From Candidatus Cryptobacteroides faecipullorum (GTDB lineage: Bacteria > Bacteroidota > Bacteroidia > Bacteroidales > UBA932): a stretch of 64,000 nucleotides of DNA. Positions within the stretch are counted from its first letter, which is position 1; every line of letters starts with the position of its first letter. The stretch is from positions 244 through 64,243 of the forward strand of contig JADIMH010000007.1 of the NCBI GenBank assembly GCA_017694885.1. The letters are read 5' to 3'. Below the pieces are notes generated by a model. The model was not told the DNA's origin. It saw only the letters and a list, made by a program, of their open reading frames with translations, and ran no database searches. This document shows positions 3 through 10,445 of the stretch, piece by piece. Made by a program: the position numbers and the translations under genes.

Positions 3-1748
3 ATGGGGGCGTTCCATTCGGTGAACGAAGCCTGTGTGGAGACATTCCGTTCGGGCATTGCGCGCAGCGTCGAAGTGATGCCTGTTGCGGCATGGTTCCC
101 CGAAGCGGTGAAAATGCTGAAAGAGAATCCGGGTCTGGATGTGGGCGTTCATCTGACCTTGACCAGCGAGTGGGAGAATGTGAAGTGGAGACCGCTGACG
201 CATTGCCCGAGCCTGACGGATGCGGACGGCTATTTCTACCCTATGATCCGCCCGAATCCCGATTATCCGGGCCAGGCCCTTACCGAACACGAGTGGGATA
301 TCAGGGAAATCGAGAATGAATTCCGGGCCCAGATAGAAACCGCGCTGAGAAATATTCCGCAGGTCAGCCATCTGACCGGACATATGGCTTCTACCGCCTT
401 CAGCAAGGAGGTCAATGAACTGACTCTCAGGCTTGCCCGTGAATACAACCTGGCATGCATCGACCGTATGGACTCGGATAAGGAATACGGTTTCCGGTAC
501 ATAGGCTACACCGGGACGAACAGGACGGCCCTGGACAAGAAGGCAAGTTTCATCGCATCGCTGGAAAAACTGGAACCCGGCAAGCGATATCTTTTCCTGG
601 ACCATCCTGCATATGACAACGATGAAATGAAAACCGTATTCCATATCGGGTACGAGAATGTAGCGGAAGACCGCCAAGGGGTGACGGAGATGCTGACCAG
701 CCCTGAGGTGAAACAGGCCGTCGAGGATCTCGGCATCAGGCTTATTGATGTCAACGTCCTGACCAGGAGCCTGCCGCGCGAGGAGGCTTCGCCCAAGCTG
801 GACAAGGCAGTGCATAAATATCTGGCTGCGGTACAGAAAGCCGGGCAGGACCTGCACAGCCTGATGGTCGTACAGCATGGCAGCGTACTCGCCGGGCACT
901 GGATGGGCAAAGGTAATGAAAACGAACCGCATGTGCTGAACTCCGTCAGCAAGACATTCACATCGACGGCAGTAGGCTTTGCCGTCTCGGAAGGCAGGCT
1001 GAGTCTGGATGACAAGGTGATATCATTTTTCCCCGACAAACTTCCGGATAAAATAAGCGACAACCTGAAAGCCATGACGGTAAAGCACCTGCTTACCATG
1101 ACATGCGGACATGATACCGACCCTACCGGAGCCATCAGGACAAGCAAGGATGCGGACTGGATAAAGGAATTCCTTGCCGTTCCCGTAGAACATGAACCGG
1201 GAACGTTCTTTACATACAACAGTTTGGGTACCTATATGCTCTCTGCCATCGTCCAGAAGACAACGGGGCAGAAAGTTGTGGACTACCTGTGGCCACGGCT
1301 CTTCAGGCCTCTGGGAATCATCAATGTGCATTGGGACGAAAGCCCTCAGGGAATAAACACCGGAGGCTGGGGACTGTATCTGAAGACTGAAGACCTTGCC
1401 AAGATGGGGCTTCTCCTGTTGCAGGACGGGATGTGGAACGGAAAGAGGATCCTTCCCGAAGGCTGGGTGGAAGAAGCATCCGCAGCCCAGGTTCCTTCAC
1501 TGCCGGCAGGAGTAAAGCCGGAGATGGTCAAGGAACTCAAACTCAATGCAAAGGACAGCGACTGGCTGCAGGGATACGGATACCAGATGTGGAGATGCCG
1601 GCACAATGCCTTCCGCGCAGACGGTGCCAACGGGCAATACATCCTGGTCCTGCCCGAAAAGGATGCCGTAATCGCCGTCACCGCACACATCCAGGATATG
1701 CAGGCCGAGCTGGACCTCATATGGAAATATCTGCTTCCTGCCCTGTAA
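3..1748 (+). CDS. Two-domain hydrolase (5' end cut by window): YdjC/ChbG-like carbohydrate deacetylase domain fused to a beta-lactamase-fold serine hydrolase
   Basis: The ORF is open from the window edge. The N-terminal half has a YdjC-like block 'GVHLTLTSEWENVKWRPL'. The C-terminal half has the Ser-x-x-Lys motif 'SVSKTF' in an AmpC/esterase-like context. Confidence 0.7.
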   Translation: MGAFHSVNEACVETFRSGIARSVEVMPVAAWFPEAVKMLKENPGLDVGVHLTLTSEWENVKWRPLTHCPSLTDADGYFYPMIRPNPDYPGQALTEHEWDIREIENEFRAQIETALRNIPQVSHLTGHMASTAFSKEVNELTLRLAREYNLACIDRMDSDKEYGFRYIGYTGTNRTALDKKASFIASLEKLEPGKRYLFLDHPAYDNDEMKTVFHIGYENVAEDRQGVTEMLTSPEVKQAVEDLGIRLIDVNVLTRSLPREEASPKLDKAVHKYLAAVQKAGQDLHSLMVVQHGSVLAGHWMGKGNENEPHVLNSVSKTFTSTAVGFAVSEGRLSLDDKVISFFPDKLPDKISDNLKAMTVKHLLTMTCGHDTDPTGAIRTSKDADWIKEFLAVPVEHEPGTFFTYNSLGTYMLSAIVQKTTGQKVVDYLWPRLFRPLGIINVHWDESPQGINTGGWGLYLKTEDLAKMGLLLLQDGMWNGKRILPEGWVEEASAAQVPSLPAGVKPEMVKELKLNAKDSDWLQGYGYQMWRCRHNAFRADGANGQYILVLPEKDAVIAVTAHIQDMQAELDLIWKYLLPAL

Positions 1749-2171: not shown

Positions 2172-2179
2172 AAAAATGG

Positions 2180-2283
2180 CGGACCGGATGCCGAACTACA
2201 TGCCTCGTTCCGCAATCCGGTCCGTCAGACCAAGGATTTCATCCTTTTCCAGAGACGGACACTCCCCTGCCGACAGCTTTTTT
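2180..2283 (+). terminator. Structured region after yccF: two overlapping stem-loops followed by a T6 run
   Basis: Stem 1 is CGGACCGGAT (2180-2189) with ATCCGGTCCG (2215-2224). Stem 2 is GTCCGTC (2220-2226) with GACGGAC (2254-2260), and it encloses AAGGAT/ATCCTT (2232-2246). A T6 run lies at 2278-2283. Confidence 0.35.
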
Positions 2284-3150
2284 ATGACAAGACGTCCCGC
2301 CGCACAAGCGGAAGCCCTGTCAGGAAAGGCCGCATCCTACCTGGGTTCCTCCACGGAGATGACCGGACACAATGCCTTTGTTCGCATCAACGCCAATCGT
2401 CAGATGGCTGGAGAAGCGATGCTTCTGGAGGCTCCTTCGCACCTCGTCAACGTTCCCAACGTCTCTTATACCAACGTCGTGATGACACCGCAGATGATTC
2501 TCTTCGCGGGAATCAAGCACGAACCCTCCCCTTTCAAGCTGGTGGTCAAGATGTCCGGCAATCAGTCTGCCGGCGTCTCCAACGGATGGAGCAAAACGGT
2601 CATCATCTCCTCGGATACCGAAGACGATTGGGGTGAGGCTGACGTGACCAAACTGTATCTTAAGACCATCGGTGTGGAGCCCTCCCCTGGCCAGAAGGTC
2701 TTCATCGAGACCTATTGGATGGACACCGCCAGCGGCTTCGCCGGGCAGGTGTTCAGGGATATGGCCGTCGTTACCGGAGAATCCTCTTATCAGACTCGTA
2801 CGCGCGTGACAATGGATAACCTGGACCCTACCGAGGAGCAGCACGTCTCTGCGCTGGATATGGACTTCTCCACCAATGCGCCGGTCATCTACTTTGACAC
2901 CGTCTGCCTTGGCCACAGCAATGTCGCTTCCTCTGAGGCCATCCTTGACAAGGAACTCCCTGAGGAACTTATCGGCCTTTCCTATGCACTTGCCCGTGGT
3001 ATGGGTGAAGATGGTTCCCTGCATCCGCAGTCTTACCAGATCCAGTCAATGGTATGGCGCCAGAAAACCGAACTCCATTTCATGCACCGGGGCGGCAAGT
3101 ATATCAAGCCAACCGAGGTTTTCGGTCCCGGCATATTCTATCAACAGTAA
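2284..3150 (+). CDS. Hypothetical protein A, first gene of the orphan operon (the ORF is also open from an ATG at 2176)
   Basis: This is a long ORF with no recognisable motif and no signal peptide. I prefer the 2284 start because 2180-2283 is hairpin-rich and ends in T6, but 2176 cannot be excluded. Confidence 0.55.
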   Translation: MTRRPAAQAEALSGKAASYLGSSTEMTGHNAFVRINANRQMAGEAMLLEAPSHLVNVPNVSYTNVVMTPQMILFAGIKHEPSPFKLVVKMSGNQSAGVSNGWSKTVIISSDTEDDWGEADVTKLYLKTIGVEPSPGQKVFIETYWMDTASGFAGQVFRDMAVVTGESSYQTRTRVTMDNLDPTEEQHVSALDMDFSTNAPVIYFDTVCLGHSNVASSEAILDKELPEELIGLSYALARGMGEDGSLHPQSYQIQSMVWRQKTELHFMHRGGKYIKPTEVFGPGIFYQQ

Positions 3151-3162
3151 TCCCTTCGCACT

Positions 3163-3675
3163 ATGTTCAACTCAACAGGAAATAACTTTGGTGCAGGCGT
3201 CATCCAGTTCAAGGATGTCCAGGAGAGCAATTATATTGTCCTCAACGCCAAGTTCACCTGCAGCCCGCAGAGCGCGGAGTACCAGGCGGCCGAGGTGCTG
3301 GAGATTTATGTCCCGGCCCTCTCGATTGCCCGCAGTACCATTGCCGGTGTCGTGGCCAGGTACAAGGAACGCGGGACTTCCTACGGTTATCCTTATATCT
3401 ATGACGGCGGCACTGTCCTGAAGTCCTGGGTGAAAGATGCCAATACGCTGTGTATTGAGAAACTAAGCTGCTTCGATGACAAGCAGGAAATCATCATCTA
3501 CATCCAGACGCTCTACTGTATGCTGGGCCAGGGCGGGAACGCCACCAAGGGTAAGGAGAAACGCATCACGGCTACATCGGAAGACAATGCGCTCCGTTTC
3601 AGCACTTCCTACTCCTTCTGCGTCGTATTCGAGAAATGGATCTTCTACCACATGATGTTCGACGGTGCCTCGTAG
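3163..3675 (+). CDS. Hypothetical protein B, N-terminal part ending at an in-frame TAG (3673-3675)
   Basis: The 170-codon ORF is paralogous to protein C (4277-4999). The same frame stays open after the TAG. Confidence 0.6.
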   Translation: MFNSTGNNFGAGVIQFKDVQESNYIVLNAKFTCSPQSAEYQAAEVLEIYVPALSIARSTIAGVVARYKERGTSYGYPYIYDGGTVLKSWVKDANTLCIEKLSCFDDKQEIIIYIQTLYCMLGQGGNATKGKEKRITATSEDNALRFSTSYSFCVVFEKWIFYHMMFDGAS

Positions 3676-3819
3676 GCGCTCCGGAACCTGGACTGGGAAG
3701 CCTTCTTCGACACACTTCCGGATGATGTAAATGCCGACGTCCCCGTTATCGCCTCGTACAACTATGGCAATGACAAGCTGGGCGGCATCACGGAGTCCCG
3801 CCTTGAGGGTGGCTACTGG

Positions 3820-4284
3820 ATGCTTCCTAAGGATGAACGTGGGGACGGATTCGAGAATACCGGCAACTATGTGTTCTCCTTTGGTTATCTGGTGCGTGAC
3901 TATGTAGAGGAGCCCGTGATACCCGGAAGACTTCGGATTCAGGAGGAAGAACTGGACGGAGGCCGCTACAACAAGTTCCGGGATTTCGACCTGGAGCTTA
4001 TTCCGTATCCTGCCTTGGCGGCTTGTGAGGGCCATACCGGCATCTACAGTGCCAGCGAATGCACCTTTACGCCGCAGTCCAGGCCCTCGGAGATTCCTGA
4101 GTTTGATGCCAACTTCCTCGACACCTTCCAGGGTGGTCAGGGTCTCTCGGTCCAGCTGCTCAAGATGGAGTATCGGACGGCAACGGCTGCCGGCTCCATC
4201 AAGATTACCGATGAATCCGGGATGAAAAACCTCGCCTTCAAGATGTATGACACGGCCATAGCAATGGCTCTAAACAATGCCTGA
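3820..4284 (+). CDS. Hypothetical protein B, C-terminal part (same frame as 3163-3675, open from 3676)
   Basis: There is no stop between 3676 and 3820, and no ATG, GTG or TTG in that frame before 3820. Similarity to protein C runs across the TAG, so this is most likely one 372-aa gene, either read through or inactivated. Confidence 0.55.
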   Translation: MLPKDERGDGFENTGNYVFSFGYLVRDYVEEPVIPGRLRIQEEELDGGRYNKFRDFDLELIPYPALAACEGHTGIYSASECTFTPQSRPSEIPEFDANFLDTFQGGQGLSVQLLKMEYRTATAAGSIKITDESGMKNLAFKMYDTAIAMALNNA

Positions 4285-4999
4285 CGATATGCTGACGATC
4301 ACTGCTACCAATTTCGGAGTCAATCCGGCCTTTCTCAATATCAAGGAATATCACGAGCAGAACCTGCTTTTGCTGGATGGCGACATTTCGGTGGATACGA
4401 CAGCTGCTGAATACGCCGGAATCCGTCCTATGAAACTGACCGTCGCGGACCTTCCTTTTGCCAAGAGCCGGATTGCTACGGCGCTGGTGACTGCCGCTTC
4501 TGATGGCGTGAACTACTGCACGCTGGCCAAGGTCTGGATAGCTGACAAGAACACCATCTGCATCGGCAAGATTCTGCCATACAAGAGCTTGGGAAACTAT
4601 ACCATCCACCTGAATACCATCTTCATTCCGACGATGGTCACCGGCCCAGTCTCGCTGAATACCTCGAAGGCTTATACTCCGCAGTTCAACAAGGGAACCG
4701 GCGATGGCGTCGAAGTGCTCACGGTAGAGAATCCTCATTGGATGATGTTTATGCTGAAGGCATCCAACCTGGTGTTCGACTCTGATGACCAGGCGGTGGA
4801 GATTCAGCTGCCTGGTTTTCCCTCCGACATCTCCATCAACCCGCCCATCATCTACAACGAATCCCTCTGGAGCAACCTGGGGAGCAAGTATTATCCGGCT
4901 TATCTCCGGAATGGAGTGCTTACCATTTCGAAAGCAGAGGCGGCTGATGAACCGGAAGGGACCGGCACCAAGTTTACCCGCATAATCACAGTCCGTTAA
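4277..4999 (+). CDS. Hypothetical protein C, paralogue of B
   Basis: The start overlaps the stop of B by 8 nt. Shared blocks include 'AKVWIADKNTICIGKI' against B 'LKSWVKDANTLCIEKL', and 'HWMMFMLKAS' against B 'YHMMFDGAS'. Confidence 0.65.
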   Translation: MPDDMLTITATNFGVNPAFLNIKEYHEQNLLLLDGDISVDTTAAEYAGIRPMKLTVADLPFAKSRIATALVTAASDGVNYCTLAKVWIADKNTICIGKILPYKSLGNYTIHLNTIFIPTMVTGPVSLNTSKAYTPQFNKGTGDGVEVLTVENPHWMMFMLKASNLVFDSDDQAVEIQLPGFPSDISINPPIIYNESLWSNLGSKYYPAYLRNGVLTISKAEAADEPEGTGTKFTRIITVR

Positions 5000-5008
5000 T
5001 CCAGCCTT

Positions 5009-5293
5009 ATGTCCGAGAAGAAACGCATAGAACTCACGCGCCTGCAGGGCATCATTGCGGTGGCCAGCTTTGTCTCCGGCATCGTCATCGCAGCCGTGTG
5101 CCTGTTCTTCGTCCCGCCGCTGGGAGAGATTGCCAGCTCCGCCATCAGCATCGTGAGTGAGCTGCTGGTCCTCTGCGGTGCCATTCTCGGCGTCAAAGCC
5201 AGCTATGATGTCAAGTTCCGAAAATTTGAAGCAGAACTTCAGGACGTTATAGACAACGAAAAGAAACTGAATACCCAAACCGACAATGAATAA
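5009..5293 (+). CDS. Small 2-TM membrane protein with a charged C-terminal tail (holin-like architecture)
   Basis: The 94-aa product has two hydrophobic helices ('IIAVASFVSGIVIAAVCLFFV' and 'ISIVSELLVLCGAILGV'). They are followed by a K/E/D-rich tail. Confidence 0.6.
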   Translation: MSEKKRIELTRLQGIIAVASFVSGIVIAAVCLFFVPPLGEIASSAISIVSELLVLCGAILGVKASYDVKFRKFEAELQDVIDNEKKLNTQTDNE

Positions 5294-5765
5294 GTATCTG
5301 CCATTGCTTCTCCTGCTCGCCGCTTCCGCTTGCGGTACTGTCCGGACGCTTCCAGTCCAGGACAGTACCCGGGTGGAAGTCCGGACGGAGGTCAGGACGG
5401 TTCACGACACGGCCTTCGTTGAGCTGCTGGTCATCGTGGAGCGGGTGTCCACCCTCGACACCGCATCCGTCCTGGAGAACAAATACGCCAAATCGGCCGC
5501 TTCCGTGTCGGATGGTGTTCTGCATCATTCGCTGGAGACAAAGCCCGCCAGAGAGCCCGTTTCGGTCGAAAAGCAGATTGTTTATCGAGACTCCCTGGTC
5601 TATCGCGACCGCATCGTCACGCAGACCGTCGAGGTGGAGAAGAAACTCTCCTGGTGGGAATCGCTCAAACTGAAAGTCGGCGGCTTGGCGCTGCTTGCCA
5701 TCGCCCTGCTCGTTGCATATTTCCTTATTACCCATATTATCAACCTTAAATTCTTCAAGTTATGA
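5286..5765 (+). CDS. Lipoprotein with a C-terminal transmembrane anchor (unimolecular-spanin-like architecture)
   Basis: It has a signal/lipobox 'LLLLLAASAC' and a beta-rich middle. The C-terminal TM is 'VGGLALLAIALLVAYFLITHII'. It overlaps the upstream gene by 8 nt and the downstream gene by 4 nt. Confidence 0.6.
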   Translation: MNKYLPLLLLLAASACGTVRTLPVQDSTRVEVRTEVRTVHDTAFVELLVIVERVSTLDTASVLENKYAKSAASVSDGVLHHSLETKPAREPVSVEKQIVYRDSLVYRDRIVTQTVEVEKKLSWWESLKLKVGGLALLAIALLVAYFLITHIINLKFFKL

Positions 5766-6169
5766 AGTACAATCCTTCCATCGCCTTCGACGAAATGTCG
5801 GGCTCCGCAAAGGGTGTCACCGCCGCCAAGACGCGTGGTCGCAAGTACATCCGTAACCGTGGATACGGCGGCTCCACCAGGACCGCGTTCCAGTCTTCCG
5901 TAAAAGCTGTCTTCAAGCAGCTCTCTCAGGCCTGGCAGGGGCTGACCAACGAGCAGATCCTCGCCTGGAATGCAGCGGCCAACACCGCTCAGGGCAAGTC
6001 CGTTCTCGGCACCAAGTCCAAGATCTCCGGAGCGAACCTCTTTATGAGGCTCAACTACTGGGTCGTGTACTGCGGCGGCCAGATCATGACTGCCGTGCCC
6101 GCAGGCGCAAGATGGAAGCCGATCTCTTCTTCTCGTAAAAAGTTCGTACCTTTGCACCCGGAGGTCTGA
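5762..6169 (+). CDS. Small hypothetical protein F with a Lys/Arg/Gly-rich N-terminal arm
   Basis: The 135-aa product contains 'SGSAKGVTAAKTRGRKYIRNRGYGGSTRTAFQ...WQGLTNEQILAWN'. It is the last gene before the terminator, with an ATGA overlap onto the upstream gene. Confidence 0.55.
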   Translation: MKYNPSIAFDEMSGSAKGVTAAKTRGRKYIRNRGYGGSTRTAFQSSVKAVFKQLSQAWQGLTNEQILAWNAAANTAQGKSVLGTKSKISGANLFMRLNYWVVYCGGQIMTAVPAGARWKPISSSRKKFVPLHPEV

Positions 6170-6194
6170 TGCCAGACTTCTATTGTTAACACCC

Positions 6195-6231
6195 GGTGCG
6201 GTCCTGCAGCAATGCTCGGCCGCACCTTTTT
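6195..6231 (+). terminator. Rho-independent terminator of the orphan operon
   Basis: GGTGCGG (6195-6201) pairs with CCGCACC (6220-6226), followed by TTTTT (6227-6231). Confidence 0.6.
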
Positions 6232-6236
6232 CGGTA

Positions 6237-6323
6237 TGCATCTTATCGGATTTCAGAAGTCCATAACTTGCATTTTATCGGATTTCAAGAAGATGTTTTC
6301 TGCATTTTATCGGAATTCAGATA
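6237..6323 (+). repeat. Three direct repeats of about 22 bp spaced exactly 32 bp apart, upstream of the ATPase promoter
   Basis: The copies are TGCATCTTATCGGATTTCAGAAG (6237), TGCATTTTATCGGATTTCAAGAAG (6269) and TGCATTTTATCGGAATTCAGATA (6301). Confidence 0.8.
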
Positions 6324-6360: not shown

Positions 6361-7638
6361 ATGATTGAGGAAAGAATAATCCTGCAAGTCCTTGCAGAAC
6401 AAAGAGATGAAGTCGCCGGTTATAATCCTGCCGGGTGGGTGTCCCGTCGGGAGGAATCTATGTTCGAGTTCGACAGCACGATGGCCCAGGTCGTCATTGG
6501 CGTCCGACGCAGCGGCAAATCAACCATCTGCCACAAAGTCCTGCTGGAGCACGGTATCCGGTATGGTTATGTCAACCTTGACGATGACCGCCTGCTGGGT
6601 ATGGAAGCGAAAGACCTGAATACCGTTCTCTCTTGTATATACCAGCTCTATGGAACTGATGTCCCCTACCTTTTCCTGGACGAGATTCAGGATGTGGACG
6701 GCTGGCATCTGTTCGTAAACAGGCTCCTTCGGAGCAAGATGCGAATCTTCGTGACGGGCAGCAATGCCAAACTGCTCAGCAGCGAACTGGCCACCCATCT
6801 GACCGGACGCTACAACGAGATCCGTCTCTATCCTTTCTCATTCTCCGAGTACTGCGCATATCATCAGGTTGACACTTCTGGCATCACCACCAAGGCCGAT
6901 GCCGCCCGCAAGAGCGCTTTCATGGACTACATCGTCACAGGAGGATTCCCCGAACTCCAGAGCCTGCGGAACAAACGTGGCTACATCGAGAGCCTTATCG
7001 GCGCCATTCTGGAGAAAGACATAAAACGTCGCTTCAAGATCCGCAATATGGACGCACTGCGGAAAATCGCAAATCACCTGATAAACAACACCTGCCAAGA
7101 GGTCAATTACGACGATATGTCTAAGATCCTCGGGATAAGCGACAAGACCTGCAAGAAATATACAGACTACCTCCGCCAGGCATTCCTCATACAAATACTG
7201 TCAAAGCATTCTTTCAAGAGCAAGAACAGGATTCGCAGTCCGAAGGCTTATATCGTCGACCCCGGATTCCAAAACAATCGGGAAAACTCGATGGCCGGAG
7301 AGAATATCGGCTGGCGGCTTGAGAACGTAGTGTACATCGAACTGCTGCGCCGCTGTGCATACGATTTCCGGGACGTCTATTACTACAAGGCCAATCCGCG
7401 AGCCAAAGAGGTCGACTTCGTTGTCTGCGACAAGGACCGGGCACTTGAGCTGATCCAGGTCGCCTACGAGATCGATACACCTAAGTCTTATAATCGCGAG
7501 ACCTCTGCACTTATTCAAGCGGCAGGTCCGCTTCACTGCGACAATCTGACGTTGATTGCCTTCTCCCCTACCCGGGATGTCGAAATCGATGGCAAGACCA
7601 TTCACATCGTATCGGCAATTGAGTGGCTCTTGGCTTAA
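6361..7638 (+). CDS. AAA-family ATPase of the AAA_14/DUF4143 type
   Basis: It has Walker A 'GVRRSGKST' and Walker B 'LFLDEIQD'. The C-terminal region 'EVDFVV...LIQVAYEI' resembles the nuclease-fold tail of this family. The start is set at 6361 because 6196-6231 is a terminator. Confidence 0.75.
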   Translation: MIEERIILQVLAEQRDEVAGYNPAGWVSRREESMFEFDSTMAQVVIGVRRSGKSTICHKVLLEHGIRYGYVNLDDDRLLGMEAKDLNTVLSCIYQLYGTDVPYLFLDEIQDVDGWHLFVNRLLRSKMRIFVTGSNAKLLSSELATHLTGRYNEIRLYPFSFSEYCAYHQVDTSGITTKADAARKSAFMDYIVTGGFPELQSLRNKRGYIESLIGAILEKDIKRRFKIRNMDALRKIANHLINNTCQEVNYDDMSKILGISDKTCKKYTDYLRQAFLIQILSKHSFKSKNRIRSPKAYIVDPGFQNNRENSMAGENIGWRLENVVYIELLRRCAYDFRDVYYYKANPRAKEVDFVVCDKDRALELIQVAYEIDTPKSYNRETSALIQAAGPLHCDNLTLIAFSPTRDVEIDGKTIHIVSAIEWLLA

Positions 7639-7664: not shown

Positions 7665-7760
7665 TTCGGGGACGGTCCTTCAACTTTTTTGTCCCCCATC
7701 CTCAAAATCCCTGCAAAAAAGTTGGTCCCTCCAAAATTTCGGGGACAGCAGGGGGACAAA
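7665..7760. repeat. Cluster of overlapping inverted and direct repeats (possible structured RNA or element end)
   Basis: CAACTTTTTTG (7681-7691) pairs with CAAAAAAGTTG (7714-7724). TTTGTCCCCC (7688-7697) pairs with GGGGGACAAA (7751-7760). TTCGGGGAC is repeated directly at 7665 and 7738. Confidence 0.7.
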
Positions 7761-7804
7761 GATGAAAAGGTTAAAATGATAAAGTATTTATTTACAATAA
7801 GTTA

Positions 7805-7984
7805 CTAAATTCCAATATTTCCTATATCGGAAAATATAAGGTCTACAGATTCCGACATGATGAAAGTGACCGCTTTGCCAAGATCATTGAACGAACCGGC
7901 AAGTTCGAGGAAAGGCACTTTCGCGATATAGCTGCAGACCAGATCTACTGCCGGCTTTTCGTCATCAATAAAAATACAACGCAT
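7805..7984 (-). pseudogene. Truncated LytTR-type response regulator (first about 54 residues of the receiver domain only)
   Basis: Hand translation gives 'MRCIFIDDEKPAVDLVCSYIAKVPFLELAGSFNDLGKAVTFIMSESVDLIFSDIGNIGI*'. This aligns to the N-terminus of the intact regulator at 8634-9365 and stops just after the acceptor-Asp region. Confidence 0.7.
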
Positions 7985-7996
7985 AACTGATTGAAT

Positions 7997-8589
7997 TTAC
8001 ATTGTTTCAATTTCCAGGTATGAATAGTATTTTTCATTGTCCGTCACACCATACTGATCCGTATCGTCCGGAAGCCGTTCTCCTGCGAGGTCGATATAGT
8101 TGCGGATAAAAGACACTTCTTCCCTAAAATATACCTCAGGCCTGTCACTGCGGTACAACGCATACCTGAGCAACTCGCACAAACTGTCGAGGGAGCGTCT
8201 TGCATGGTCGGAATCGGAACCGATAAAAGAATATATGTTATTCAGCGCATTGAACAGGAAATGAGGATTCAGCTGGTTCTTCAGATTCTGCAGTTCTATT
8301 CTGACATGGCTGTGCTCCTGTTCCTTTCTCCTCTTTTCATTTTCATACCATCTTCTGATTATCCTGAAAACTATTGCGGTCCCTATGGCACATACGTACA
8401 GCAAGGTGTTTACGAACAGGAAATGGAACGGTCTGAATCCGATGCCGCCGAATTCCGGCACGGGAGGCGCTATGGAATCAGGTACCGGCGGAGCAGCAGG
8501 ATATAATCAGTGAATTTCTCAATGCGTACGCCCGAGGTATAAGCCAGATATGGAAGACACAGTATGATTATCCATACGAGCACATTCAC
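7997..8589 (-). pseudogene. Decayed LytS/YehU-type sensor histidine kinase (frameshifted, lacks the HATPase domain)
   Basis: ORF 7997-8461 has the His-kinase block 'LQNLKNQLNPHFLFNALNNIYSF' but ends before any 'ENAFKHG' ATPase motif. An out-of-frame fragment (8470-8589, 'VLVWIIILCLPYL...') matches the N-terminal TM of the intact kinase. Confidence 0.65.
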
Positions 8590-8633: not shown

Positions 8634-9365
8634 TCACATCATGCATTTCCCTACCATTTTCTGCAGAGTTTCCTTGTATGTGTCCCCTATCGGGATATTC
8701 GCGTTTTCCAGCATTATCCGGCCCCGGTCGATGGATCTTATCTTGGAAATATTGACTATGAACGACCGATGGACCCTCAAGAACCTGTCCCGAGGCAGCA
8801 TACCTTCAAGATCCCTCATATTCATGAGTGAAAGTACGGGTGCCCCGGAAGATTCAATATAGAACTTGACATAATCCTTGAGACCTTCGACATAAAGCAG
8901 GCCGTCGAACGGAATACGGACCAGCCGGTATTCGCTTTTCACATATACTCCGGAGTTGTCCCGTACCGTACCTGCCGCATTATTGCTTCCGGCAGCCTTC
9001 CTGGCTATGCTGAACCATTCGATGGCCTTGCCGACACACCGCATGAATTCCTGATATGAAACCGGTTTGAGAAGGTAATCGAGTGCATTGACCTTATATC
9101 CTTCTATGGCATACTGGCCGAATGCCGTCGTAAATACTACACGTGTCGAAGCCGGTATCATTTTAGACAGTTCCATGCCGTCAAGTTCCGGCATCTGTAT
9201 ATCAAGGAAAAGCAGGTCCACAGGATTTTCCTTAAGGCCGGCGAGCGCTTCGACAGCATTGCGGTACCTGCCCTCCAGTTCAAGAGAAGGGGTCTTCTTC
9301 ACATAGCTTTCCAGAAGGTCCAGAGCCAAAGGCTCGTCATCCGTTATGGCGCATTTCAGTATCAT
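8634..9365 (-). CDS. LytTR-family two-component response regulator
   Basis: The receiver carries 'LLFLDIQMPELDG'. The C-terminal LytTR DNA-binding domain carries 'FLRVHRSFIVN'. Confidence 0.9.
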   Translation of the reverse strand: MILKCAITDDEPLALDLLESYVKKTPSLELEGRYRNAVEALAGLKENPVDLLFLDIQMPELDGMELSKMIPASTRVVFTTAFGQYAIEGYKVNALDYLLKPVSYQEFMRCVGKAIEWFSIARKAAGSNNAAGTVRDNSGVYVKSEYRLVRIPFDGLLYVEGLKDYVKFYIESSGAPVLSLMNMRDLEGMLPRDRFLRVHRSFIVNISKIRSIDRGRIMLENANIPIGDTYKETLQKMVGKCMM

Positions 9366-9389
9366 CTGTCTGCACGGTTTAAAAACATT

Positions 9390-10445
9390 TCACTTCTTTT
9401 TTATAATCAGCAAAGACCGGTATACCGTCCCTGAGCTGTCCGGGCCGAAGGTCCACTCGTATTTTCCGGGATAAAGCAGTTCCAGTCTTCTGGAAAGAGA
9501 ATCCAGACCTATGCCGGAGCCGCTTTTATCCGAGCTGGATTTCGGATGGCAGCTATTGATTATATCGCAACGTATTTCTTCTTCATTCTCGCCAAGCCTT
9601 ATCCTGACAAAACTCTTTCCGGAAGAGGATATCCCGTGTTTGAAGGCATTCTCTATCAAAGAAATGAACAGCATCGGAGCTATTTCAGTCCGGCTGTCTT
9701 CAGATATGCCGATACTTGTTTCAAGGCTGACATCCCGGGTCAGGCGGATTCTCATCAGTTCGATATAGTTCCGAATAAAAGCCACCTCTCTTCCCAAAAG
9801 AACCTTCTCATGCTGGTTGTCATACAGGACATATCGCAGAAGACGGCTCAGTTCCGACACCGCAGACTGCGCTTTATCCGGATCGAAAGCTATAAGTGCG
9901 TAAATATTGTTCAGGGTGTTGAGCAGGAAATGCGGATTCAGCTGGTTCCTCAGATTCTTGAGTTCCGCTTCCGTCTTCCCCCGTTCCGCCTCTTTTCTCG
10001 CATTTTCCGTCTTCAGCCACCTACGCCCGAACTGGACGGAAACAGCTACTCCAATCACAAGCGCCAGTGAAGACACATCCCTGAAGAAAAACAATATTCC
10101 GGGATTAAGCCTGAAACGGGGCAAATCACGCAGCGGTTCAGGCGGCGCAAGACACAAATGCAATGCCTGCATCAGAACGCCGGAAAAAACGATAAGCGCC
10201 AGATTCAGCAGCACCCAGGCCATAGTCTTTTCCCTGAAAAGCAGTTTAGGGATAAAAATACAATAGTTCAGATAAAAGACAATACAGAAAAACAGGGGTA
10301 CTATACTGTGATGCAGTATCCTCGGCCAGTCTATTCCGGAAGACTCGTTGGTCACCAGAAGAAGCGGGAAACCGAAAAACAAGACCCACACCAGTATGTG
10401 GATCATCGGTTCAATGAAGCGTATGCCGTTTTTCTGCTGTTCCAT
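9390..10445 (-). CDS. Sensor histidine kinase (LytS/YehU-type His_kinase plus HATPase_c)
   Basis: It has N-terminal TM helices, 'LKNLRNQLNPHFLLNTLNNIYALI', 'LIENAFKHG' and 'GSGIGL'. Confidence 0.88.
   Translation of the reverse strand: MEQQKNGIRFIEPMIHILVWVLFFGFPLLLVTNESSGIDWPRILHHSIVPLFFCIVFYLNYCIFIPKLLFREKTMAWVLLNLALIVFSGVLMQALHLCLAPPEPLRDLPRFRLNPGILFFFRDVSSLALVIGVAVSVQFGRRWLKTENARKEAERGKTEAELKNLRNQLNPHFLLNTLNNIYALIAFDPDKAQSAVSELSRLLRYVLYDNQHEKVLLGREVAFIRNYIELMRIRLTRDVSLETSIGISEDSRTEIAPMLFISLIENAFKHGISSSGKSFVRIRLGENEEEIRCDIINSCHPKSSSDKSGSGIGLDSLSRRLELLYPGKYEWTFGPDSSGTVYRSLLIIKKK

Follow-up and report, generated by a model that had tools for sequence, protein, structure and literature searches.

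Near the left end of a 64,000-nt stretch of DNA (hereafter the window; contig JADIMH010000007.1) from a chicken-gut metagenome-assembled genome (MAG) of Candidatus Cryptobacteroides faecipullorum lie six closely spaced genes, here called A to F. The cluster proteins (MBO8466348-54) are each annotated as 'hypothetical', and the question raised by this locus is what these genes derive from and whether they still act together. An initial annotation, made from the sequence alone, had described them as an orphan, translationally coupled operon with the flavour of a viral late or lysis module. The analysis reported here indicates that the cluster is very likely the late block of an integrated mobile element, trimmed at both ends and decaying, whose parent was most likely a small temperate virus or else a satellite. 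The family to which this element belongs appears to be undescribed in the libraries and the literature that were searched.

The window copy is a decaying fragment

ORF calls bear out the layout proposed for the cluster, with six open reading frames (ORFs) on the plus strand that are separated by gaps of 12 and 9 nt or overlap by 8, 8 and 4 nt. The six products have no match in Pfam, PHROGs, NCBIfam, PADLOC or the PDB sequences, and full-length relatives of A-F likewise give none in Pfam, PHROGs or PADLOC; the window region has no Rfam match, blastn of the cluster DNA against deposited phage genomes finds nothing, and G+C content does not set the segment apart from its surroundings. The description of these genes as orphans without a recognisable family thus holds for the annotated libraries, but a large superfamily of relatives of A and F does exist. 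Comparison with relatives (loci that carry them are given as L numbers, and their proteins as P numbers) shows what has become of the window copy.

Three of the six genes are disrupted. Homology of A (2284-3150, the longest ORF starting at 2176) to its relatives of ~350 aa begins only at about 2308, corresponding to their residue 70-73 or so, and approximately 70 N-terminal codons are gone. Intact A relatives are 352 aa long, and in tblastn searches residues 73-352 of one of them (A350) align to window 2308-3141; in the family alignment (A4) the conserved N-terminal arm is absent from the window protein. The upstream extension of A, together with the start codons at 2176 and 2284, is evidently junction sequence, and follows directly after yccF.

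Gene B (3163-3675) is a B/C-family gene of ~373 aa that ends prematurely at a TAG codon (3673-3675), beyond which the reading frame resumes to 4284. This stop, to which the initial annotation had drawn attention, is real, and there is no other in-frame stop in A-F, but the read-through product then envisaged is not supported: full-length relatives (370-373 aa; P0003, P0004 and P0063) have Trp at this site, and in ten loci of the same species the codon is TAG in seven and TGG in three, two of the latter carrying a frameshift elsewhere in B. The TAG is a TGG-to-TAG nonsense polymorphism. Read-through or recoding of B is ruled out by the TGG in relatives and conspecific strains; the TAG is a lone one, aligned with Trp and polymorphic, and tRNA scans, which covered the relatives' loci, found no suppressor tRNA near the elements.

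The last gene, F (5762-6169), encodes 135 aa, compared with 227-229 aa in its intact relatives. Its A/F-family homology is confined to 5762-6100, which represents codons 1-113 of a gene for a paralogue of ~228 aa; DNA homology to every relative is lost at 6099/6100 (codon 113), blastn alignments to 40 loci all stop at 6079-6100, and the remaining tail (6101-6169) is junction DNA read in frame. The 3' half of F, and whatever lysis genes followed it, were evidently lost in a deletion. Because homology ends at codon 113, the last 22 codons and the presumed terminator lie outside the ancestral gene. The hairpin at 6195-6226, followed by U5 (to 6231), is a real fold as originally noted (-22.6 kcal/mol, z = -3.05), but it lies beyond the breakpoint at 6100 and is not the terminator of the ancestral F gene.

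Over its first 339 nt (5762-6100), F is 84-99% identical at the DNA level across elements whose neighbouring genes hardly align, and the conserved stretch usually runs from the start codon to codons 106-113, the same place as the breakpoint in the window. This boundary looks like that of a mosaic or cassette, or like a cis-acting site.

Other parts of the ancestral element are missing altogether. A search of the whole 64 kb found no integrase, primase, helicase or endolysin gene, in agreement with what had been noted for integration, replication and endolysin functions, and no additional A/F or B/C fragment; the window also lacks the structured motif and the first A/F gene of intact elements. 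In every conspecific contig read, the cluster is found at this one locus, and these strains bear independent extra lesions: Kelch/DUF4907 DNA takes the place of A, B has a frameshift, D and E are fused, or E is shortened. Of the six genes in the window, C, D and E alone are still intact. With A truncated at its 5' end, B interrupted by a nonsense codon and F truncated at its 3' end, the cluster is a decaying fragment and not the intact translationally coupled operon that had been proposed, and since the other element genes are gone as well it cannot work as the ancestral unit did. In L003, L006 and L007 (same species, ~6720-7590), most of A is swapped for minus-strand fragments of DUF4907 and Kelch-repeat genes, leaving 17 codons at the start and 30 at the end of A.

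The remnant resembles cryptic (defective) prophages and other integrated elements in decay in that foreign late genes sit at one chromosomal site with both ends truncated, nonsense and frameshift lesions, strain-specific deletions, and loss of the integrase and replication genes. It is unlike them in that the parent corresponds to no described phage, and no gene matches PHROGs or any of 50,697 phage genomes.

Intact relatives are mobile elements with a common late block

A survey of 185,579 GTDB species genomes turned up relatives in 299 places, almost exclusively in Bacteroidales MAGs from rumen, gut and digesters, with a few occurrences evidently mis-binned; at least 491 metagenome contigs carry the family as well. 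The family is mobile, with variable sites and multiple copies per genome: several GTDB genomes hold more than one copy, and the neighbouring genes vary. Literature searches returned no description of an A/F-B/C element family.

The architecture of these elements was derived from ORF clustering over 100 loci and hidden Markov model (HMM) scans over 170 loci. Intact elements are ~10-11 kb long, as exemplified by L097 (2037-12761, ~10.7 kb). The canonical late block is composed of an A/F gene of ~235 aa, a second A/F gene of ~350 aa, a B/C gene of ~244 aa (or two, of ~370 and ~243 aa), where present D (~88 aa) and E (~159 aa), and finally an A/F gene of ~228 aa; of the 170 loci, 129 have B/C genes, 95 have E, 80 have D and 74 have three A/F genes. 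Where a locus is well assembled, the late block is followed by replication genes, encoding either Zn_ribbon_16/DUF6371 and AAA_25 (DnaB-like) helicase proteins or a BT4734_N/PriCT_2/DUF3987 primase-helicase. An HTH_17 gene after the late block matches excisionase PHROGs, and the same loci also encode a 256-aa protein without a family and a tyrosine integrase. The cargo is variable and includes AlbA_2, restriction-modification, DUF4209 and defence genes. The combination of an integrase, an AlpA-type (HTH_17) regulator and a primase/helicase in an island of ~10 kb is thus present in intact relatives, for example at L097 6354-12761.

These contexts substantiate the suggestion of a viral late or lysis flavour, as the relatives reside in elements with integrase, excisionase and primase-helicase genes, where the same genes stand next to Phage_lysozyme, Peptidase_M15_3 or Amidase_3. 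The outcomes that would have spoken against that suggestion, namely membership of ordinary cellular families or conservation of the cluster as core genome across the family, did not materialise.

Scans for tRNAs and direct repeats gave no convincing pair of att sites, and the large neighbours at L020, considered for a tailed-phage context, held nothing diagnostic. At the end of one contig with an intact element (L056, 10358-10414) there is a group II intron D1-D4 fragment (RF02001, 50.9 bits).

Lysis genes

Gene D (5009-5293, 94 aa) encodes a protein with two hydrophobic spans, predicted to be transmembrane (TM), and a charged C-terminal tail, and E (5286-5765, 159 aa) one with a lipoprotein-type signal ending ..LAASAC (Cys16), a periplasmic part devoid of Cys and a TM segment at the C-terminus; hydropathy is thus in accord with the topologies first assigned to both. 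Small size, two TM spans and a charged C-terminus are common to D and class II holins, and from this class II topology alone D is best read as a holin-like protein, its best holin PHROG match being insignificant (E = 0.55). Unimolecular spanins are defined by a lipoylation signal, a C-terminal transmembrane domain (TMD) and the lack of periplasmic Cys (PMC6139136). This definition fits E, the lipobox of which (ASAC) is non-canonical, and E has in common with the unimolecular spanin gp11 of phage T1 a lipoylation-type signal, a Cys-free periplasmic part, a C-terminal TMD and a lysis context. Together, D and E are best read as a holin-like and unimolecular-spanin-like pair, although unlike known spanins and holins they have no sequence similarity to any known family of either.

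The relatives place both genes in company with endolysins. D is kept between the B/C gene and F in 80 of 170 loci and is absent where an alternative lysis cassette occurs; E adjoins D, and in relatives it is beside or near Amidase_3 or lysozyme. Three types of endolysin gene follow F or are closely linked to it. A Phage_lysozyme type is found in L019, paired with a TM-coiled-coil protein and an E-like lipoprotein bearing a C-terminal TM segment; a Peptidase_M15_3 type is found in L018, L073, L077, L082, L086 and L092; and an Amidase_3 type, with an endolysin PHROG match of 1.7e-43, is found in 23 of 170 loci. D and E are absent from elements with the M15_3 cassette, which encode instead a TM and coiled-coil protein (matching an Rz-like spanin PHROG, 1.9e-5) and a DUF6808 protein.

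The E family was also recognised in MT836016 (L182), where a weak partial match, the only one for E in the deposited phage genomes, was borne out by an HMM match of E = 1.5e-21, at 1.6 kb from holin and endolysin genes. The gene (1221-1706, minus strand) encodes an E-family lipoprotein with a C-terminal TM segment and lies in the late region of a tailed-phage fragment; MT836016.1 is an unannotated 13.9-kb human-gut 'Bacteriophage sp.' fragment with a tail-fibre gene and a holin/endolysin pair.

The A/F and B/C protein families

A and F are paralogues that have an N-terminal region of ~215 residues in common (tblastn and alignment A4), with the shared motifs PSIAF..SGSAKGVTA, Q..AW and SV.G....SG.N.F.R.N; the N-terminus of F is a basic arm, as had been pointed out at the outset. 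A full-length F relative of 229 aa used as a query retrieved 1135 clusters at 90% identity, the best 120 of which are all at least 77% identical to it, and an intact A relative of 352 aa retrieved 1136 such clusters. An exhaustive profile search put the A/F superfamily at 6237 clusters (50% identity, E <= 1e-3); 1547 of these had E <= 1e-10. The family combines a near-invariant N-terminal part, a putative anchor, with a variable and presumably displayed domain, and conservation of F itself between species is very strong. Some members, of 480-600 aa, have added C-terminal InlB-type B-repeats; P0481, P0484, P0500, P0502 and P0511 are 515-600 aa long and contain two to five such (Flg_new_2) domains. 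In L181 (8424-11803), three A/F genes are arranged in tandem and no B/C gene was detected, with a PriCT_2/DUF3987 primase-helicase gene and a type IIG restriction-modification gene ~3-7 kb upstream of them.

The AlphaFold2 (AF2) model of F, computed from a 20-sequence alignment, is poor, with a predicted local distance difference test score (pLDDT) of 57.6. In it a disordered basic arm precedes helices at 37-103 that are predicted with low confidence; the C-terminal sandwich, of moderate confidence, matches only FN3/Ig-like domains and is the one usable part, as no more than a lead.

B and C are paralogous (BLASTP E = 5e-15, 22% identity), just as had been surmised. C (4277-4999, 240 aa) is a short, intact member of this B/C family, most members of which are 17-27% identical to it, whereas for a C-like subgroup the figure is 55-98%; no protein of the module evolves faster than B/C. 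A distant kinship between A/F and B/C is ruled out (hhalign probability 0.2), and profile searches of the PDB sequences with the A/F and B/C alignments returned nothing.

The AF2 model of C, from a 98-sequence alignment, is confident (pLDDT 92.8, predicted template modelling score 0.89) and shows an all-beta, two-domain fold. A Foldseek search of the PDB with this model gave nothing significant (best E = 9e-3), the top-probability partial matches being avian reovirus sigmaC and adenovirus fibre heads over ~140-150 columns. In BFVD, where the best E-value is 1.9e-4, the partial matches are to many tail-fibre, collagen-repeat, baseplate and receptor-binding C-terminal knobs. Superposition on fibre heads has a Foldseek probability of 0.75-1.0 with a query-normalised template modelling score of only ~0.3. 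The search for fibre folds advocated in the initial annotation has yielded partial fibre-head matches for C, but nothing significant in the PDB, and for F only an FN3/Ig-like sandwich in a poor model. The predicted likeness of C to viral fibre heads is a lead and not a family assignment. Some 140 residues superpose on the receptor-binding heads of viral fibres (reovirus sigmaC, the adenovirus knob, and tail-fibre and collagen-repeat knobs), and fibre receptor-binding proteins usually evolve fast, as B/C does within its module; C differs from fibre proteins in being without a shaft or collagen repeat, and its whole two-domain fold has no significant neighbour. A double-jelly-roll capsid identity for B/C is ruled out by the confident C model and the Foldseek results.

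A structured motif heads the late block of intact elements

Upstream of the first A/F gene, intact elements contain a conserved block without ORFs, with a 174-nt core that folds into six helices. In 31 sequences, compensatory double changes occur in 24 of 36 pairs, pairing is found in 93% of cells compared with 29-40% when partners are slid, and the covariation score was reached by none of 500 shuffles. A covariance model locates the motif in ~40 of the loci searched (including L033 1186-1360, L014 6980-7153, L097 1718-1890, L085 6267-6441, L044 1783-1946 and ~35 more); with one exception, motif and late genes lie on the same strand. Rfam contains nothing that matches the motif, and it is absent from the window. 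As G-U pairs are nearly absent, the motif may be a GC-rich RNA or, alternatively, a single-stranded DNA (ssDNA) or both-strand structure such as an origin or packaging signal; it is a candidate for a new structured RNA or ssDNA element, and offers a practical marker for locating intact copies.

A second block without ORFs and with long helices lies 5' of the motif at L033 805-1010 and at counterparts in L046, L058, L066, L086 and L156; only these six sequences are available and covariation is weak. The two blocks may form one larger structured RNA of ~550 nt or more.

The nature of the parent element

The probable life cycle of the intact element can be sketched from the gene content of the relatives. 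On induction, the element would excise by means of its integrase with the HTH_17 protein, and would replicate through the primase/helicase. A/F and B/C would be made as particle or surface components, A/F contributing a conserved N-terminal arm, a helical anchor and variable FN3-like or InlB-repeat domains, and B/C a fast-evolving, fibre-head-like binding protein. Host lysis would be brought about by the holin-like D, the endolysin and the unimolecular-spanin-like E. That the parent was an autonomous small temperate virus, with capsid and packaging genes that have gone unrecognised, is in our estimate about an even bet. A more elaborate proposal, which is tentative, is that it represents a new lineage of small temperate viruses of the Bacteroidales with particles built from A/F and B/C without any known capsid, portal or packaging homologue, with a new structured RNA or ssDNA element heading its late module, and nearly missed by virus-detection pipelines (three IMG/VR contigs against at least 491 metagenome contigs).

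Several findings count against the view that the cluster is the decaying late block of such an element. No capsid, portal, terminase or packaging ATPase gene is present in any intact relative examined. Scans of the genes neighbouring the late block (L014, L018, L019, L097, L060 and L011) revealed only replication, integration, lysis or cargo genes; there is no Pfam or PHROG match to an HK97-fold capsid, portal or large terminase in A-F, the full-length relatives or these neighbours, and no FtsK/HerA-type packaging ATPase was found, the only P-loop proteins being the AAA_25/DnaB-like helicase, the DUF3987 primase-helicase and the AAA_14 cargo. The VP1/F capsid and VP4 rolling-circle Rep of the Microviridae gave no Pfam or PHROG match, and tblastn against the phage collection was negative. 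The C model has no capsid match in PDB or BFVD that would suggest a double jelly roll, the A/F model being too poor to exclude one, and with a model of that quality the role of A/F is a guess. Neither A/F nor B/C has a tblastn match in the 50,697 deposited phage genomes, nor does F in 72,556 deposited plasmids. Only three contigs in IMG/VR carry the family, the same three for three different queries, and there is no circular contig among 180 fetched loci. Among 52 well-flanked loci a replication module was recognised in 23 and an integrase in 15, figures that are lower bounds given our own limited family models. As regards decay, the eight changes that separate what is left of F from an intact relative are all synonymous, and the truncation is thus probably recent; and C, D and E are intact, so that single genes could perhaps retain residual activity.

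Among viruses, the closest counterparts are small tailless temperate phages integrated in Bacteroidetes, namely Microviridae-related proviruses ('Alpavirinae', PMC3091885) and PM2-like, double-jelly-roll proviruses (PMC5894146). In common with these, the element is small, integrated in Bacteroidales, and has a handful of putative structural genes and no tail genes. It is unlike them in that no Phage_F/VP1, VP4 Rep, double-jelly-roll capsid or FtsK/HerA ATPase was detected, and in its replication by a primase-helicase.

Satellites of phages such as P4 and the phage-inducible chromosomal islands (PICI) have a backbone of integrase, AlpA/HTH_17 and primase-helicase genes in ~10 kb. A parent of this kind, with its own excision and replication functions and a capsid and packaging machinery borrowed from a helper phage, would have used A/F and B/C as decoration, adaptor or receptor-binding proteins, and the window copy would still be a dead remnant; we regard this as the main alternative, though a rather doubtful one. 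The element does share the integrase, HTH_17 and primase-helicase backbone, the ~10-kb size and the want of recognisable capsid genes with P4-like and PICI satellites, the last being compatible with helper dependence but not diagnostic of it, and both the partial resemblance of B/C to fibre heads and the conserved N-terminal anchor and variable display domains of A/F would suit such roles. Known satellites, however, usually leave lysis to the helper, whereas these elements own complete lysis cassettes with endolysin, holin-like and spanin-like genes; the hijacking genes of known satellites (terS, sid and cpm-like) were not recognised, and the deposited phages contain no A/F or B/C homologue that could act as a docking partner. 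We know of no helper phage for these elements. A non-viral integrative element, with A/F and B/C as adhesin- or toxin-like cargo freed by programmed lysis in the manner of colicins or tailocins and with no packaging of DNA, would account for a lysis cassette without capsid or packaging genes, for the FN3-like and InlB B-repeat domains in A/F members, and for the lack of circular contigs and the minimal presence in IMG/VR. We consider it unlikely, because excision and replication genes consistently accompany the module, which occurs in multiple copies per genome at variable insertion sites, toxin, immunity and secretion domains were not detected, and the very strong conservation of F across species would be unusual for bacteriocins.

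Two further explanations concern the window cluster as a working unit. The initial annotation had raised the possibility of a domesticated particle-release or bacteriocin-like module, and a functional six-gene operon of this sort, with B expressed by TAG read-through or as two useful halves, would fit the tight gene spacing, the strong downstream hairpin with T5, the intact C, D and E, and the presence of the cluster at one locus in all conspecific contigs read. It is very improbable given that the TAG stands opposite Trp in all full-length relatives and is TGG-polymorphic within the species, that A and F are without conserved parts of their family, that strains differ in their extra disruptions, that no endolysin is left in the window, and that the hairpin is beyond the F breakpoint; the disruption of A, B and F, with further independent lesions in strains, thus tells against domestication. 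Least probable of all, to the point of being barely credible, is an anti-phage abortive-infection module with D and E as membrane effectors. This is brought to mind by the neighbouring AAA_14/DUF4143 gene, which matches PADLOC PDC-S01, and by the restriction-modification and AlbA_2-type cargo of the elements, but A350, F, B, C, D and E give no PADLOC matches, the module is found beside endolysin and spanin-like genes in phage-like order, and three of its six genes are broken in the window.

Extent of the remnant and its neighbours

Element-derived DNA extends beyond F. Window 6143-6200 is 86% identical over 58 nt to L073 6495-6552 and 81% identical to L086 11238-11294, and window 7687-7830 is 74% identical over 148 nt to L073 6609-6752 (blastn). 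In L073 the two segments are just past the lysis cassette and 57 nt apart, and the L086 counterpart of the first (6143-6231, which overlaps the hairpin and T5) is also just past its lysis cassette. In the window they are separated by a gene for an AAA_14/DUF4143 ATPase (6361-7638, plus strand; Pfam), whose match to PDC-S01, a candidate defence family in PADLOC, has E = 2e-98. This family is also found inside the late modules of L073 and L086, and the gene is therefore probably mobile element cargo. Since the two L073-like segments flank it, and the second, the probable right end of the element, stops at a broken response regulator/histidine kinase (RR/HK) pair, the element-derived DNA spans ~2.3-7.8 kb. 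An acquired segment of about 2.2-7.8 kb had been predicted, and element DNA can indeed be traced to ~7830, where it abuts the truncated response regulator gene.

At this right junction the host RR/HK gene pair (7805-8461, minus strand) has evidently been disrupted, leaving a truncated response regulator (7805-7984) and a histidine-kinase fragment (7997-8461; ORF calls and His_kinase Pfam matches). The truncated LytTR response regulator (59 aa) and the His_kinase fragment adjoin an intact HK/RR pair at 8634-10445. The kinase fragment varies from 100 to 245 aa among conspecific strains, and the right junction is thus decaying too.

On the left, window 3-1748 contains a gene for a fusion of YdjC-family and beta-lactamase-family proteins, which is 628 aa in full-length conspecific loci. 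Upstream of this gene, L001, L004 and L010 (2791-4042) have a tyrosine integrase gene followed by NusG, FHA and Ser/Thr kinase genes, where other strains have DUF3276/NusB/YajC genes instead; this is a second variable region beside the remnant.

Implications

As the locus itself is biologically dead, it is in its own right no more than ordinary debris. What gives it value is where it leads: to a superfamily of 6237 clusters (at 50% identity) for which no library has an annotation, and through it to a recurrent integrative element, equipped for lysis, that is common among the Bacteroidales of gut and rumen, almost absent from IMG/VR and not found in the phage or plasmid collections. If these elements make particles, they would constitute a type of virus whose structural genes have gone unrecognised in a microbiome that is among the best studied; should they prove to be satellites, no others would have been described before them for the Bacteroidales.

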